Source of the DNA: Planctomycetota bacterium | Lineage (GTDB): Bacteria; Planctomycetota; UBA11346 | Length of the DNA stretch: 64,000 nt | Direction: 5' to 3' | Assembly: GCA_038231435.1 (NCBI GenBank) | Contig: JBBRLJ010000022.1 | Location: 30,575 to 94,574 of the forward strand | Program-made: the position numbers and the translations under genes | Part shown: in pieces, positions 54,521-64,000 of the stretch | Layout: every line of letters begins with the position of its first letter | Position numbering within the stretch: the stretch's first letter is position 1 | The notes under the pieces: model-generated | The model's database searches: none | Seen by the model: only the letters and a program-made list of their open reading frames with translations | What the model was told of the DNA's origin: nothing

Positions 54521-56014
54521 TCAAGGCGCGGGAGGCGCCGCAGCAGGCACAGTGGCGTCGCCGAACATCGTCTTGGGATCCGCGAGCGGCGAGATGATCG
54601 CCTTCTCGCCATCGAGCATGAGTACACCGATGAGCTGGCCATCGCTGCGGGACACCACGGCCGCCCCATGCCAGGAGGCGTCGATCGGCACCACCGGATC
54701 GATCCGCCAGAAGATGCCATCGGCGCTGATCCGGGCGGCCGCGAGGGCGAGGGGAGCGATGGCCGGATCGCCCACCGCCAGACAGTCCTCGGGAGCCGCC
54801 GGAGCGCGCATGCGCGCGAGCGGCCAGATCTGGTCAGCCCCGAGGCCCAGTTCGAGATGCAGGACCGCGATGCCGCGCTCCTCCCATGCCGGCGCGGTGG
54901 AGACGGAGAAGCGGGAGCCCGCGACCTGTAGCTCGAGCGAACCGTCCCTCGCCGCCTTGTCCGCGCGCACCAGGCTCGCTGGGCCGAGCAGCCCGCCTGG
55001 CACGGCGAGTGTCCAGCCGCGGTACGAACGTTGGCGGCGCAGCAGCTCCTTGCGTTTCCAGCTGATGGTGGTGGCGAGTGGCCGCGGTAGCTGCTGTCCC
55101 TCGATGGTGTCGCCTACGGCGAGCGCAGGCTGCCAGGCCATCCATTCGTCCTTGGGTTCCGGCTGCAGGCTGAAGTGATGCCCGGTCGACACGGCCTCGC
55201 CGGCCTGTGGTGGCGTGGCCAAGGCGATCGCGCCCGAAACCAGCGCCTCGGGGGAATCGAAGCCGACCTTGAGGCCGTCCTTGAGGCCGATCTTGAGCGA
55301 GATGCCGCTGGTCTCCCAGAAACAGGTCTTCTCGCGGATCAGTCCAGCGAAGGGTGGATCGATGTCGACGCGCACCTCGATCGCGCTGGCGTCGTTGGAC
55401 AATCCGGTGGAGACCACCCGGCCGATGGTGAGCTGGCGGTAGGTGACGATGGATGCCGGGCGGATGCCACCGCGGGTCGGCGCCTGGATGATGATCTCGA
55501 GCGAACCGGGGGGGCACAGCGCGGTGATCGGGATGTCCTCGAGGCCCTGGAATTCCTCGCGCGGCACGCCCAGGCCGGGCAGCACACCGATGTAGCGCGC
55601 GCCTGCGAGGGTATCGAGCCCGCCGATGCCGCCCCAGCCGAAGGTCGGCCTGACGATCCAGAACAGGCTGCCGGAGCGGGCCAGATCCGCCGATGTCTCC
55701 TCGAGCCGGATATCGACCTCGACTCCCGCGAGGTCCTTGTCCAGACGCAGCTGCTTGACCTGCCCAACCACGATGCCGCGGTGCCTGACCAGGTCGCCTT
55801 CGCGCAGTCCGTGTCCGTCCTGGAAATGGAGGGAGATGCTCGGTCCGCCGACCTTCCAATTCTTCCACACCGCGTAGCCGACGATCGCCGCCGCGAGCGG
55901 AGGCAGCAGCCATGCCCACGACCAGCCGCCGCGGCGGCGGACGGTCGCCTGCGCCGGCGATGCCGATGGCGCGGCTCTCAGTGATTTCCCGGAGGAGCCC
56001 TCGATGTCAGGCAT
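54521..56014 (-). CDS. pqiB: PqiB/MlaD family protein with two MCE domains and an extra C-terminal domain
   Basis: WAWLLP TM, GLREGDLVRHRGIVVGQV, FWIVRP, second MCE VTYRQLTIGRV...FWETSG. Confidence 0.85.
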   Translation of the reverse strand: MPDIEGSSGKSLRAAPSASPAQATVRRRGGWSWAWLLPPLAAAIVGYAVWKNWKVGGPSISLHFQDGHGLREGDLVRHRGIVVGQVKQLRLDKDLAGVEVDIRLEETSADLARSGSLFWIVRPTFGWGGIGGLDTLAGARYIGVLPGLGVPREEFQGLEDIPITALCPPGSLEIIIQAPTRGGIRPASIVTYRQLTIGRVVSTGLSNDASAIEVRVDIDPPFAGLIREKTCFWETSGISLKIGLKDGLKVGFDSPEALVSGAIALATPPQAGEAVSTGHHFSLQPEPKDEWMAWQPALAVGDTIEGQQLPRPLATTISWKRKELLRRQRSYRGWTLAVPGGLLGPASLVRADKAARDGSLELQVAGSRFSVSTAPAWEERGIAVLHLELGLGADQIWPLARMRAPAAPEDCLAVGDPAIAPLALAAARISADGIFWRIDPVVPIDASWHGAAVVSRSDGQLIGVLMLDGEKAIISPLADPKTMFGDATVPAAAPPAP

Positions 56015-56669
56015 GGTTGGCCACGCGTTCGTCATCCAGGACGCCAACGAAGGCGTCGTCACGCCACATCGCCTGTGGATCGAAGGTCGCGCCGGCGATC
56101 AGGCTCATGATCACCATGGTCGCGTAGATGGCCGCCCCCGGGCCCGCGTCGACGCTGACCATATCGCCGAGCTTCACCGCCGCGACCACGCCGGCGACGA
56201 GCATGACGTCGATCATGCCCCAACGTCCGGCGCCCTCGATCAGGCGGTAGGTGAGCGCGCGGTGATGGCTGCGGGTAGCCCGCGATGCCAGGCTCAGCCA
56301 CAGCAGCCCCATCAGCTTCATCAGGGGGACGACGATCGAGCAGACCAGCACGATGCCGCCGATCAGCCAATGGCCATCGCGCACCAGGTTGATCGTGCCG
56401 TGCCAGATGTCGGTCTGGTTGCTGACGCCGAAACGCTCGATCGACATCACCGGCAGGCTCATCGCGAGCGGGTAGAGGATGAGCGCGGAAAGCGCCGCGG
56501 CCACCGTCCACGACTGGTTTCCGCGCTGCGCGAACGGCGTGGCGCAGCGCGCGCAGGTCACCAGTTCGTGCGGGCTCGGGTGGGGCACGATCTGGATCAA
56601 GCCGCAGCAATGGCAGGCGCGCAGGAGCGGCTCGGAAGGCTGCACGGGGACGGTCTGAGCGGTTGCCAC
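56007..56669 (-). CDS. pqiA: Paraquat-inducible protein A (single PqiA module)
   Basis: CHCCG..CARC, ALILYPLA, GRWGMIDV, FDPQAMW. Confidence 0.9.
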   Translation of the reverse strand: MATAQTVPVQPSEPLLRACHCCGLIQIVPHPSPHELVTCARCATPFAQRGNQSWTVAAALSALILYPLAMSLPVMSIERFGVSNQTDIWHGTINLVRDGHWLIGGIVLVCSIVVPLMKLMGLLWLSLASRATRSHHRALTYRLIEGAGRWGMIDVMLVAGVVAAVKLGDMVSVDAGPGAAIYATMVIMSLIAGATFDPQAMWRDDAFVGVLDDERVANHA

Positions 56670-56791
56670 GGGGGTACCCTACTGGCGGATGCCATGATGG
56701 AGAAGGGGGATAGGCGCCATTGCTCCACGCGTTACCTCCCGGTTACACCCCCGATGGGGCTCCGGCGCATGATCCCGCCATGGAGACCATC

Positions 56792-58069
56792 ATGCCCCGA
56801 GCCATCCTCGCCCTGGCCCTCTACCTGGGTTTCGCGGCCCTGCTGCCGATGAGCGCCCACGCCTGCGGCTGCGGGCTGGATCCCGACCTGGTGACCCGCG
56901 CGCTGGGCGCGGACGCCGAGACCGCGACCGCCGCCCGCGAGGCGTTGCGCGCCGAAGGCCCGCTCGCCATCACCTTCCTCGATCACGAGCACATTGGACG
57001 CGCTCGCCTTGCGGCGCAGGATGAAGCAGCCTGGGACGCCCTCTACGACCAGATCGGCCAGCAGCGGGGCTGCCGGAACTCGCACCTCTTCTGGTATACC
57101 GATCTCACAGAGGCCGAACGCGTCGCCGCGGCCGAGCACAAGCCGATCCTGTCCCTGCGCATGCTCGGCAAGCTCACCGACGAATACAGCTGCGCCAACA
57201 GCCGCTTCTTCCGCACTGTGCTCTACGCCAATGCCGAGGTCTCGGAATACCTGCGCGACCACGTGGTGCTGCATTGGCGGTCCGAACGCCCGGTGCCGGT
57301 GGTCAGCGTCGATTTCGGCGATGGACGCATGATCCGCACCACCGTCACCGGCAACAGCGCGCACTACATCCTCGATGAGACCGGCCGCCCGCTCGATGCC
57401 TTGCCGGGCCTGTACGGCCCGCAGCCGTTCCTGCAGCACCTGCGCGAGGCGGTGGCGTTGGATCTGGCGATCCACGCCGACCAGGACCACCGCGACGGCA
57501 TCCTGCGCGAGCATCATGCCACGGCGTTGCGCGCGAACGCGCCGTCGCGAGCTCCGGATGTCACCGAGAGCGTGCAGGTCGACAGCGCGCGCGAGTTCAC
57601 CGTCGAGGCGCTGGTCGCCGAGCAGGTCACGGTCGGCAAGAGTCTCGCCGAATCTCCGTTCCTGCGCGCGGCACGCCTCGGCGGCGATGGCGGCGCGGCG
57701 CCGATGGCTCCGGCAGTACGCGCCGCGCTCGCCGACGCGCACCCGGAATTCGGCACGATCGACGCCTCCAGCCGCGCGCTGGTGCTCGCGCAGATGTCCC
57801 TCGATGGCATCCCTGCCACCCAGGACGGGGTGATCGAGGAGCTCGAACGGTCGATCGCCGAGGACACGGTGCTGAACGAGTTCAGCCTGCACGCGGCCAT
57901 CCATCGGCGATTCGCTTCTGGAGCGGTCGCTGACCTCGAGGCGCTGAACCGCTGGATGTACGACCGGCTGTTCCGGACTCCCGCTTCCGATCCCTGGCTG
58001 GGCCTGATGCCCCACTGCTACATCGGATTGGATCACAACGGCGTTGTCGTGGCCGCCGCTAAGCGCTAA
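56792..58069 (+). CDS. Exported protein with a thioredoxin-like domain
   Basis: Signal peptide ending AHA; WYTDLTEA..A..EHKPIL..MLGKLTDEYSCANSR...VVLHW. Confidence 0.7.
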   Translation: MPRAILALALYLGFAALLPMSAHACGCGLDPDLVTRALGADAETATAAREALRAEGPLAITFLDHEHIGRARLAAQDEAAWDALYDQIGQQRGCRNSHLFWYTDLTEAERVAAAEHKPILSLRMLGKLTDEYSCANSRFFRTVLYANAEVSEYLRDHVVLHWRSERPVPVVSVDFGDGRMIRTTVTGNSAHYILDETGRPLDALPGLYGPQPFLQHLREAVALDLAIHADQDHRDGILREHHATALRANAPSRAPDVTESVQVDSAREFTVEALVAEQVTVGKSLAESPFLRAARLGGDGGAAPMAPAVRAALADAHPEFGTIDASSRALVLAQMSLDGIPATQDGVIEELERSIAEDTVLNEFSLHAAIHRRFASGAVADLEALNRWMYDRLFRTPASDPWLGLMPHCYIGLDHNGVVVAAAKR

Positions 58070-60651: not shown

Positions 60652-61047
60652 ATCCGTCAATGCATCAGTTCATTTTGATTAGCGGCGTGAGCGCAGCCTG
60701 AATCCGCCCAGATAGAAGCGCACGCTGATCGCCCATGAGGGGCTCTGGACATCGCTTTCCTGGCGCTGCAGCTGCGCGGCGAGGATGCGTCTCACCAACG
60801 CCGACAGATCGTGGGAGGCCTTGCTCTTCGTCGTTCCAGCGGGTCCGGACACAAGGGTATCCTCCAGGTCGATGGCGCTGGTACGGTATGGGCAGACAAT
60901 CGGACATTCGCGGGCAATTGGCTGAAGACTGAACGCGCAACCGTCCGGCAGAATCGGTTACTAGGTGCCTCCGATCCACTCGGGGCGACGTTTGCAACGC
61001 CACGGACCAGGCGCCGGGGCGGTTTATCGGGTACACTCACGCAGCCT

Positions 61048-62010
61048 ATGAGCGGCGGCGAAACCCTTCAGATCCGGCGCAAGATCACCAAGGGCAACCT
61101 GCTCTTCGGCGACTACACGCTGCTGCACGTGCTCGCCCAAGGCAAGGTGGGCATCATCTGCGAGGCCGAGCACAATTCGCTGAAGCGGTCGTGCGCGCTG
61201 AAGATGGTCAATCCGACGTACGCCGAACGCGAGGGTTTCTCCTTCGCGCTGATCGAATCGTTCCTGCGCGAAGCGCGGATCATGGCCGGTGTCGACCATC
61301 CGAACATCATGCCCGTCTACCACGGCGGCACCGTCGGGCAGTGTCCGTTCATCGCTATGCGTCTGGTGCGTGGCGGCAACCTCGATGCGCGTGTTGCCAA
61401 GACCGGCCAGGTGAGCGGCGACTGGGCGATGCGCCTGATCCACGATTGCGCGGCGGGGTTGCAGGCTGTGCACGCCACCGGCTTCGTCCACGCTGACGTC
61501 CGTCCCGACAACGTGCTCCTGGAAGCCGACGGCATGCCGCGCATCACCGACTTCGATCTCGCGGCGCCGATCGGCGACCCCAAGCCGCGCGCGGCCCCCG
61601 AAGCGCCACTCTATGCCGCGCCCGAGCTCCGCGCCGGGCAACCGCTCGACGAACGCGCCGATCTCTACGCCCTCGGAGCCACCATCTTCTACGCCTGCAC
61701 CGGCAAAACTCCGCGCGAGATCGAGGACGGCGACGCGATCTCCGCCGCGGTCTATCGCGCCATGCCCGCCGGCGGCCGCAACGCGATCCTCGGCAAGTCG
61801 CTCTCGTCGATCATCGCCAAGCTGATGGCTCCGGATCTCGAGACCCGGTACCGTATCGCCGAGGAGGTGCTGCACGACTGCCGCTGCGTGGGTGCCGGCC
61901 AGGAGCCCGAACACGCCCTCGGACGGACCCGTCAGCGCAAGGAGCGTTTCTTCGGCTGGAAGAACGGCGAGGAGAAGCCCGCCGAAGACGACAATCCGTT
62001 CCCGGAATGA
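61048..62010 (+). CDS. Atypical cytoplasmic Ser/Thr kinase-like protein
   Basis: LAQGKVG, ALKM, FLREAR, HADVRPDN, DFDL, YAAPE, ADLYALG; the frame is open from 60811. Confidence 0.85.
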   Translation: MSGGETLQIRRKITKGNLLFGDYTLLHVLAQGKVGIICEAEHNSLKRSCALKMVNPTYAEREGFSFALIESFLREARIMAGVDHPNIMPVYHGGTVGQCPFIAMRLVRGGNLDARVAKTGQVSGDWAMRLIHDCAAGLQAVHATGFVHADVRPDNVLLEADGMPRITDFDLAAPIGDPKPRAAPEAPLYAAPELRAGQPLDERADLYALGATIFYACTGKTPREIEDGDAISAAVYRAMPAGGRNAILGKSLSSIIAKLMAPDLETRYRIAEEVLHDCRCVGAGQEPEHALGRTRQRKERFFGWKNGEEKPAEDDNPFPE

Positions 62011-62244: not shown

Positions 62245-62334
62245 TGGCGGACAGGGGGGGATTCGAACCCCCGAACGAGTTTCCCCGTTACGCGCTTTCC
62301 AAGCGCGCGCATTCGGCCGCTCTGCCACCTGTCC
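62245..62334 (-). tRNA. tRNA-Ser(GGA)
   Basis: GGACAGG acceptor stem, anticodon loop TT-GGA-AA, long variable arm, GGTTCGAATCC T-arm, G discriminator, encoded CCA. Confidence 0.97.
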
Positions 62335-62435: not shown

Positions 62436-63674
62436 TCACTCGTTGATGTCCCAGTCCCGCACAACGGTGTGGTCGTCCATGACCGCTGGCGGATAGCGCC
62501 CTTCGCTGGGCACTCCGGCATCTCCGAAGGCGGGATCGTAGGCGCAGGTGGCGAAGCGCTTGACGTGCGCCTTGAGATCGGCCCATTCCTTGCCGCTGTA
62601 GCCGATGAAGCGGTGGATGTCGGCCTCGAGCTCCGCGGCTTCCTCGTCGCTGTGCTCATAGAAATGCTTGAGGTCCTCGAGCGCCAGGTAGCCGTTGGCG
62701 ATGTTGAGTCGCCAGAAGCGCTTCACCTCCTCGGTGAGCGGCCGGACCTCGCGCTCGTAGGTCTCGAAGAAGCGATCCACGTCGAGCACCAGCTTGGGTA
62801 TGAGCTCGAGCTGGGCGTGCTTGTAGCGCCACAGATCCTCGGCGAGGTGCTGTCCTTCCCACACGGTGTAGTGGACGACGAAATTCTGCACGTCCAGGCA
62901 GAGCTTGCGGTATTCGCGCTCGCGCCACTGGGTGTAGCGGTAGACGTCGTCGACCAGCCGTGGGACCGTCGCCTGTTCATAGCTGTAGAAAGCCTTGAAG
63001 TCGGCGACCATGCGGTCGCCCTCGATGGCGGCATGGGCGCGGAAGCGCTGGACGTCGTAGACCAGCTTGTCCCAGTCGTCGAGATTGGCCTGGAACCAGT
63101 CGCGCCCGTCGCGGATCAGCTTCTTGTACTCGCGTTCGCGCCATTCGAGGAATTCGCGGACGTCGACGTCGAGATTCGCGACTTCCCAGTGCGCGTGCTC
63201 GTAGAAGCGGTGCAGATCCTCGCGCAGCGGCACCATCTCGCGGTTCTGGTATTCGACCCAGATGCAGACATCCATCACCAGGTTGCGCCACTCGGGGTCG
63301 GCCTTGGCGAAGAAGTTCAGCACGTCGTTGGTCATGCGCGGGAAGTTCTGGATGTTGTAGCCGTAATAGCGGCCGACATCGAGCGTGAGCTTCTCGATCT
63401 GGTGCCATTCGAACGACATCAGATAGGCGAGCTCGGCATCGAGCTTGAACCATTCGCGCTTGCGCCAATCGATGAAGCGCTCGAGGTCGAACGGGATGTT
63501 CTTGCCGATGAGCTTGTTCGAGACCCCGAAGCGCACGATGTCGACGCGCAGCTGCGCGACTTCCTCGGAGCCGTGCCGCGCGAAGCGGTGGAGGTCATCC
63601 GCCGTTTCATCGCGTTCTTTGCAGCAGCCGGAGAGCAGGGCCACGGCGACGGCGAGGATGGCCCAGCTTCGCAT
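62436..63674 (-). CDS. Lipoprotein with about 20 tandem 18-residue amphipathic repeats
   Basis: Signal peptide with lipobox LSG-C; consensus xLxxDhxxF/Yxxxxx(R)Exx. Confidence 0.85.
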   Translation of the reverse strand: MRSWAILAVAVALLSGCCKERDETADDLHRFARHGSEEVAQLRVDIVRFGVSNKLIGKNIPFDLERFIDWRKREWFKLDAELAYLMSFEWHQIEKLTLDVGRYYGYNIQNFPRMTNDVLNFFAKADPEWRNLVMDVCIWVEYQNREMVPLREDLHRFYEHAHWEVANLDVDVREFLEWREREYKKLIRDGRDWFQANLDDWDKLVYDVQRFRAHAAIEGDRMVADFKAFYSYEQATVPRLVDDVYRYTQWREREYRKLCLDVQNFVVHYTVWEGQHLAEDLWRYKHAQLELIPKLVLDVDRFFETYEREVRPLTEEVKRFWRLNIANGYLALEDLKHFYEHSDEEAAELEADIHRFIGYSGKEWADLKAHVKRFATCAYDPAFGDAGVPSEGRYPPAVMDDHTVVRDWDINE

Positions 63675-63757
63675 CCGGACATGCTAGATGCGCACCCCCG
63701 ACCGACAATCGCACCCGCGAGGGGGGTGGGGCGGTGTGTCACTGCTATTTTCTTTCA

Positions 63758-63972
63758 AGGGGCTTCGCCCCTACGGCCCTAGCGGGCCTACCCCACGGGC
63801 TTTGTCGTGGCTCGAATTCGCCGGAGCCGGCGAATTCGTCGGCGGATCGGCTACGCCGATTGTATCCGCCGACCGCCACTCGGCGCCCGCCCCATCGCGG
63901 GGCGATGGGGCCCCCGGGGTATGCGATTTTCAGGGGCTTCGCCCCTACGGCCCTACCCCACGGGCTTTGTCG
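63758..63972. repeat. REP/BIME-like cluster: two direct copies flanking several hairpins
   Basis: aggggcttcgcccctacggccct...accccacgggctttgtcg at 63758-63807 and 63932-63972; minus strand reads GTAG-GGGC-GAA-GCCC. Confidence 0.75.
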
Positions 63973-64000
63973 GGGTTCGATGTCTCGCTTCGCTGCGACA

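Follow-up and report, generated by a model that had tools for sequence, protein, structure and literature searches.

The Lpp lipoprotein has about 58 helical residues arranged in heptads and a terminal lysine that is joined to peptidoglycan. MCE and PqiB proteins form long periplasmic helical tubes, SlyB forms outer-membrane lipoprotein rings that corral lipid and proteins, and untwisted helical bundles with 18-residue repeats have been obtained by design. In the part of PMC8824477 that concerns us, Lpp is presented as a helical protein anchored in the envelope by lipid, the length of which may fix a dimension. Apolipoprotein A-I, as far as an excerpt of PMC4709926 describes it, is a long amphipathic helix of tandem repeats that is punctuated by prolines and is capable of forming rings. 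An excerpt of PMC10573263 gives 15.0-16.5 nm for discs of MSP2N2, and mentions scaffolds circularised from N to C terminus as engineered tools. Phage tape-measure proteins carry aromatic residues every 11 or 18 positions, at about 0.145-0.15 nm per residue (PMC5099701, in part).

We compared with these systems a planctomycete gene located in a stretch of 64,000 nucleotides (the window), which encodes a 412-residue protein, P0001. Its features, in window coordinates, are the following.

62436..63674, minus strand: gene for the 412-residue lipoprotein of 18-residue repeats (P0001), from the open reading frame, periodicity and homologues
63627..63674, minus strand: predicted lipoprotein signal peptide, residues 1-16, ending in L-S-G, from the sequence, the spacing of the Cys to W70, and LspA and LolA in the genome
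63624..63626, minus strand: Cys17, the predicted lipid anchor, from the lipobox and the spacing to W70
63621..63623, minus strand: Cys18, N-terminal partner of a co-varying Cys pair, from covariation
62526..63608, minus strand: array of 20 repeats, all 18-mers but for one 19-mer, residues 23-383, from autocorrelation and profile parse
62850..62906, minus strand: unit 14, the single 19-mer, residues 257-275, from the profile parse
62544..62546, minus strand: Cys377, at position 12 in unit 20, the C-terminal member of the co-varying pair, from covariation
62439..62543, minus strand: C-terminal tail, residues 378-412, with a conserved dpafGD...P motif, from the alignment and a structure model, in which it is not helical and is predicted with low confidence; the distant homologues lack it
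62245..62334, minus strand: tRNA-Ser(GGA), immediately downstream of the P0001 gene, a conserved neighbour found in 16 of 34 loci

The frame is gene-like, with a GC content of 0.66/0.34/0.88 at the three codon positions, and its product begins with a basic N-region, a hydrophobic core and the lipobox L-S-G-C17, followed directly by C18. The lipid Cys lies 53-58 residues ahead of the conserved W70 in all 32 full-length loci, and the host genome encodes LspA and LolA. Asp occupies the +2 position in one of 110 family and distant members, and the E. coli sorting rule may not apply here. A full-length distant homologue (L140:231-1475, plus strand) has the signal peptide and lacks the lipobox Cys; given this protein, the lipid anchor may not be universal.

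An earlier note, made from the DNA letters, had described the product as a lipoprotein of about 20 in-register 18-mers with one 19-mer, and this description was borne out. Autocorrelation of P0001 with BLOSUM scores, compared with 300 shuffles, gave z values of 10.4, 8.7, 10.4 and 9.4 at lags 18, 36, 54 and 72; those at the other lags from 1 to 79 did not exceed 2.7 (−0.2 at lag 11, 0.3 at lag 22 and 1.0 at lag 7). The profile parse recovered 20 units starting at residue 23, all of them 18-mers except unit 14, and then the tail. P0001 is the top 18-periodic frame among the 3912 gene-like frames of its own genome, where no paralogue and no second 18-periodic protein were found. The positions that the earlier note had called largely fixed are so across the family: L2 in 74% of units, D5 in 71% (D or E in 84%), an apolar residue at position 6 in 92% and an aromatic at position 9 in 87%. 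R8 (59%) and E16 (58%) are also frequent.

On an 18-position helical wheel, positions 2, 6, 9, 10 and 17 make up an apolar face, in the middle of which position 13 is polar (Q in 60% of units of distant homologues). D5 and E16 form an acidic edge. The other edge is rich in basic residues (positions 3 and 7), and so are positions 1 and 8, which lie past the acids; acidic residues occur also at 4 and 11. Position 9 is aromatic in 87% and 99% of units, and the median number of prolines per array is 6 and 9. Proline is almost restricted to the unit junctions (positions 14-18 and 1-3, against at most 1% at positions 4-13), which in the focal family places it roughly opposite the apolar face. Some units carry motifs of their own, namely WRkREWW, YGY, NFP and YEREvPL.

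Branch-wise co-substitution was of the helix pattern, with z of 6.4, 9.9 and 4.6 at i+3, i+4 and i+7, and was as strong across junctions (z 5.4) as within units (z 6.8). With the 19-mers included, the mean period was 3.60-3.64 residues per turn across groups. A straight, unsupercoiled helix has 3.63 residues per turn according to the portion of PMC8016460 used here, so the stripe would have almost no supercoil. These patterns support the earlier proposal of one continuous amphipathic helix with a near-straight stripe, refined by the mean period.

The resemblance to known systems is partial in every case. P0001 shares with apolipoprotein A-I belts and circularised MSP a proline-punctuated repeat helix, and the hoop predicted below (about 17 nm) is near the size of MSP2N2 discs as excerpted above. 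Unlike these belts, it is built of 18-mers rather than 11- or 22-mers, carries a predicted lipid anchor, and has one acidic edge and a polar mid-face; closure, in addition, would be natural. As class A is defined in the excerpt of PMC4709926, the basic residues at 3, 7, 1 and 8 and the acidic residues at 4 and 11 fit the charge pattern, whereas D5 and E16 along one edge and the polar position 13 do not. The apolipoprotein-like belt that the earlier note had listed is the best-fitting shape; the charge pattern matches only in part. When 27 members of the family and 15 distant or short ones were scanned against Pfam, no apolipoprotein family appeared, nor was there one among PDB sequences. Like Lpp, as far as the excerpt of PMC8824477 describes the latter, P0001 is a predicted lipid-anchored structural helix of the envelope; P0001 differs in its approximately 360 helical residues, aromatic 18-mers, co-varying ends and a lag-7 z of only 1.0. 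In shape P0001 most resembles the apolipoprotein belt, and as a lipid-anchored structural helix it resembles Lpp, but the tests of repeat and homology failed for both.

The likeness to phage tape-measure proteins, also raised in the earlier note, holds for the aromatic spacing (as excerpted from PMC5099701) and for nothing beyond it. One half-length homologue weakly matches a tape-measure PHROG (E 0.004). P0001, however, is chromosomal and single-copy, has housekeeping neighbours and a lipoprotein signal, and consists purely of 18-mers, with no relative on viral contigs and no viral fold match. Untwisted designed bundles have in common with it five turns per 18 residues, hence a straight stripe (periodicity from the portion of PMC8016460 used); P0001, by contrast, is a natural protein of about 20 units, rich in aromatics, kinked by proline and with a predicted lipid anchor. 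GvpC, described as a repeat helix that braces a lattice, is alike in function. GvpC, MCE/PqiB and SlyB are functional analogues and not relatives; their families were not matched, repeat lengths differ, and P0001 has no MCE (MlaD) domain.

That the family could not be recognised was confirmed by wider searches. P0001 had no match in Pfam, PHROGs or NCBIfam, and its homologues gave scattered weak matches (phasin, tape measure, generic helices), none common to more than three proteins. The PDB sequence search of P0001 returned one designed TIM barrel (E 0.004), and the best E in the PDB profile search was 0.011. The ESM Atlas gave no usable match for two queries, which is not evidence of novelty. 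The AlphaFold monomer of P0001 (pLDDT 76, pTM 0.34) consists of long helices, the helix being broken into segments; that of a distant member, made with 21 sequences, was uninformative (pLDDT 49, pTM 0.28). Foldseek with the P0001 model as query (pTM 0.34) found no match at E<=0.001 in PDB or viral structures, and the best VIA match of the same low-pTM model (Z 6.5, rmsd 9.1, 71 residues) comprised isolated long helices only. We found no account of the family in the literature, where the search left most subscription journals uncovered and supplements such as lists of planctomycete signature proteins outside its scope. The family is real and is undescribed in the sources searched.

We then examined whether homologues differ in length by multiples of 18, as the earlier note had suggested. 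Of 225 profile matches, 35 had no recognised lipobox, most of these being fragments, and were discarded; 117 distinct mature sequences were retained. Seven partial family members were then excluded and the lipid Cys was corrected by hand in eight sequences, giving 86 family members and 24 distant homologues. The number of repeats is held at 19-20 and does not range freely over multiples of 18; the exceptions are a few short classes of about 10, 4 and 2 repeats. The core length of all 86 family members is within −3/+1 residues of that of P0001, and they parse to 20 units in 65 cases, 19 in 19 and 18 in two. The mature length of 23 of the 24 distant homologues is 367-377 residues at 11-23% identity; 21 of them parse to 19-20 units, and two, of class f31, parse fully only under a relaxed score. 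Distant and focal arrays are not collinear unit by unit (offset-0 z −2.3 to 0.8), and some distant arrays bear young 36-residue duplications, such as the re-homogenised 36-mers of L092 with 55% self-identity. With non-collinear units and a constant length, the count was either reached again or kept through turnover of units. The only common indels are one-residue insertions.

Short forms were found in four groups: 188-190 residues in three f17 genomes; 75-80 residues in four f107 genomes, three of these with a clean parse into four units, and 46 residues in one; 104-117 residues, four units and a tail, in three f39 genomes; and 89 residues in one f57 genome. Their counts of about 10, 4 and 2 are divisors of 20, the 10-unit count being taken from length without a clean parse. 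This pattern represents about four independent events, and all counts are even, as a 36-residue unit would also give. Two loci of one genus, both with an EamA neighbour, encode 89 residues (L144:1453-1719, minus strand) and 375 residues (L092:959-2083, plus strand); the 89-residue version is either a true contraction or an assembly collapse, and the short form in genome G247 could be an assembly collapse.

The evidence that bears most on the architecture is a pair of Cys residues. In the initial alignment we noticed that a second Cys near the lipid Cys co-occurs with a Cys ending unit 20. Scored in windows that were set after the pattern had been seen, the 86 full-length members comprise 37 with both C18 and C377, 49 with neither and none discordant, at a spacing of 355-361 residues; P0027 has a lone Cys just beyond the scored window. 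Among 58 representatives below 70% identity, 25 have both and 33 neither. On a tree made without both columns, each trait changes 10 times, and seven of seven independent pairs agree (p 0.016). A window-free control took every residue-at-column trait that changes six times or more, 687 in total, and compared them pairwise; C18-C377 ranked first of 226,567 pairs, with three discordant members against seven for the runner-up. In 31 of 37 members the first Cys sits at position −4, ahead of unit 1, and the second at position 12 in unit 20; the register is identical in all four members of the distant family f101. The two Cys are two positions apart in repeat units, so that the start of unit 1 continues the stripe where unit 20 ends.

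Tests of the amino acids themselves did not set the pair apart. In branch co-substitution, the columns of C18 and C377 came only at rank 5352 of 60,880, and they are outside the top 70 pairs of Gaussian DCA on 86 sequences, whose pairs were clique-like and were dismissed as phylogenetic noise. L141, L142 and L188, outside the family, have the second N-terminal Cys and no C-terminal partner. As 49 of 86 members lack the pair, it is not required. DsbB was found in none of the 41 family (f1) genomes searched and VKOR above the cut-off in one of the 41, and a crude set of exported proteins had no bias toward even Cys numbers, which leaves a catalysed disulfide unsupported. The link between C18 and C377 may be an uncatalysed disulfide or a metal bridge; another, so far undescribed oxidation route in f1 is possible.

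The covariation, together with the in-phase register, means that the two ends most likely touch, and we consider it very probable that an N-terminus contacts a C-terminus. This argues against the simple parallel 54-nm ruler, the extended spacer anchored at one end that the earlier note had listed first, since residues 359 apart co-vary almost perfectly. An Lpp-like parallel oligomer that projects from the membrane as such a ruler would suit the N-terminal lipid, the continuous stripe and the conserved length. With its ends 54 nm apart, it leaves the covariation unexplained, and self-disulfides at each end need no joint gain or loss, yet none of the 86 members is discordant. P0001 ends in Glu rather than Lys, the C-termini of homologues vary, and the Lpp Pfam family was not matched. 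We consider the ruler highly improbable.

The ends could meet in four arrangements: the chain may close into a hoop, join others head to tail as a polymer, pair antiparallel in a dimer or hairpin, or fold compactly. Our main reading, with a probability of roughly 0.4, is that the proline-kinked helix of 20 repeats is closed head to tail into a hoop of about 17 nm. C18 and C377 would be in contact through a disulfide or metal bridge, and such contact within one chain would give a hoop with a circumference of 54 nm (about 360 residues x 0.15 nm), about 17 nm across. The aromatic face would point inward, because the prolines lie at the junctions roughly opposite the apolar face in the focal family, and the tail could continue alongside unit 1 like a clasp. 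Parallel co-substitution linked the first helix weakly with the tail at offsets of 359 (z 2.9) and 363 (z 2.6), the offset-359 signal alone being not significant among about 370 offsets. A period of 3.60-3.64 brackets the unsupercoiled value excerpted from PMC8016460, as a planar ring would require. Neither AlphaFold monomer model gives a ring, and both break the helix into segments.

Because the Cys covariation is equally compatible with contact inside one chain or between chains, C377 could instead be joined to C18 of the next chain, producing endless ribbons of untwisted parallel helices, filaments or a staggered tube along the membrane. Such a polymer would be a periplasmic skeleton with one lipid anchor per 54 nm of strand, and we regard it as possible, if rather doubtful. 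It explains the Cys covariation and the in-phase register equally well; the acidic edge (D5, E16), the basic edge (R3, R7) and the polar position 13 suit helix-helix packing; the 75-residue L187, too short for a ring of its own, has C4 and C71; and weak co-substitution occurs at a two-repeat offset (z 3.1 among 19 offsets). However, a polymer does not itself need 19-20 repeats, which are held across non-collinear arrays. In-phase prolines curve a helix, and the 6-9 found here should curve the chain. We prefer the hoop because it accounts, in addition, for the constant number of repeats, the lack of twist in the stripe, the phasing of the prolines and perhaps the short forms.

An antiparallel arrangement, either a dimer forming a 54-nm rod with lipid at each end or a hairpin, would act as a spacer from membrane to membrane or from membrane to wall. 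By placing the N-terminus beside the C-terminus it accounts for the Cys pair and the fixed length, and by arithmetic the Cys register pairs core with core positions (2-6, 9-17, 13-13). The long segments of the P0001 model and its low-confidence break at mature residues 205-229 would agree with a hairpin. On the other hand, there is no mid-chain turn motif or register break, and no co-substitution at the register implied by the Cys (z −1.1 and 0.8; at most 2.0 for sums 385-405), to which about 190 positions should contribute, albeit with the limited power of about 66 effective sequences. We judge this arrangement distinctly unlikely. A local antiparallel hint at sum 442 (z 4.4) was within chance for the number of windows and was set aside. 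Offsets 176 and 184 had hinted at a double-wound ring, with 180 residues to each turn; it was likewise discarded, with z of 0.6 and 0.0 in repeat coordinates.

Termini meet in many repeat proteins, and a compact helical bundle or solenoid would bring them together here. The P0001 model has stretches with pLDDT of at least 90 (mature residues 71-120 and 261-320) and there are several predicted helix breaks, and strong unit-specific motifs (YGY, NFP) are present. Against this stand the pTM values of 0.34 and 0.28, predicted helices as long as 68-73 residues across both models, the helix signal that is unbroken over junctions, the restriction of common indels to single-residue insertions and the absence of a fold match for the low-pTM model. 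A compact fold is less probable still. Neither outcome that would have spoken against the earlier description emerged: with a pTM of 0.34 there was no confidently predicted compact solenoid, and no family was assigned.

If the closed hoop is correct, it would be held to the membrane by its lipid, probably at the outer membrane, and could serve as a fixed-size collar round a protein complex or a lipid patch. Hoops would probably be paired or stacked with one another, and the 10-, 4- and 2-repeat forms may build the same 20-unit hoop from 2, 5 or 10 chains. In the focal family, conservation is strong and specific to position, which speaks for a putative protein partner or self-stacking rather than for lipid alone; similarly, the polar mid-face, the acidic edge and the motifs of particular units point to probable protein contacts, with itself or a partner, more than plain lipid binding. 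A more specific version, a naturally circularised belt forming a 20-unit ring of about 17 nm round a lipid patch, membrane neck or pore complex, in 1x20, 2x10, 5x4 or 10x2 builds depending on lineage, seems to us unlikely.

The P0001 family is regarded as novel because the tests for known families failed and because of its probable head-to-tail architecture. Absent from the libraries searched, it occurs almost throughout several deep uncultured planctomycete lineages, and how the envelope of these lineages is organised is poorly understood. For a 360-residue helix that joins its own ends or those of the next chain, no bacterial precedent was found in the sources searched. As a hoop, the protein would give the membrane a size standard encoded in the genome and might offer a natural template for circular nanodiscs; the circularised belt would be a bacterial counterpart of the engineered circular nanodisc scaffolds, and a polymer would be a new periplasmic skeleton.

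The distribution of the gene was followed through several searches. A protein search gave 26 homologues with identities of 32-73%, and an exhaustive search of 1.84 billion representatives gave 53 matches at E<=0.001, including numerous fragments and at least one spurious match (P0070). The gene is single-copy in 31 of 36 host-family genomes, and 24 genomes from other families gave one weak match. A scan by pattern, which picks up close relatives only, covered 185,579 species and found 34 loci; the record title is Planctomycetota or one of its subgroups for 33 and 'bacterium' for the other. Six of the 34 records carry a 'Brocadiaceae/Kuenenia' label, a record label only. Profile searches of 400 genomes of the phylum found 10 and then 14 genomes outside the host family, all within four family codes. 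In a second class, a short profile was positive in 16/17 genomes of f57, 2/2 of f104, 0/1 of f105, 1/1 of f106, 4/4 of f101, 5/5 of f107 and 3/32 of f39, and two further classes were positive in 3/4 and 1/1 genomes. Distant homologues, as recognised by sequence profile, are present in three other planctomycete classes. Phyla beyond Planctomycetota were covered through protein databases. The hydrazine synthase domain was found in none of five genomes of the second class, and no viral contig encodes a relative. One homologue (L051:2525-3948) is split over two frames, by a frameshift or an assembly error. FtsZ was not found in the host genome, which is 88% complete.

Just upstream of the repeat gene, window positions 63746-64000 hold a REP-like repeated element with 347 blastn segments on many contigs, 151 of them less than 600 bases from a contig end; it is probably behind the contig break. 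A Ser/Thr protein kinase gene (window 60811-62010, plus strand) is convergent with tRNA-Ser. A PqiA gene lies next to a gene for a protein with two MlaD (MCE) domains about 6 kb from the repeat gene (window 54521-56669, minus strand), and this pair did not recur beside homologues in other loci. Window 56720-58069 (plus strand) encodes a 449-residue predicted exported protein without a Pfam match, downstream of which are genes that we take to be a response regulator and sensor kinase pair.

Neighbours of the homologues are housekeeping genes that vary between lineages, namely an rRNA-type methyltransferase, ScpA, EamA and an RpoZ-like gene, and no conserved protein-coding partner lies beside the homologues in the loci compared. 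A 294-residue exported protein without a Pfam match is encoded upstream of the gene in six loci (L047:8140-9024, plus strand) and has a relative of 37% identity elsewhere in the host genome (G000:C2:90505-91281); it is a candidate partner. SRP RNA is near the homologue in six of 12 loci scanned, and was seen divergent and upstream at L042:9581-9678, L045:4995-5090, L037:4505-4602, L022:8545-8640 and L051:2413-2508 (minus strand).
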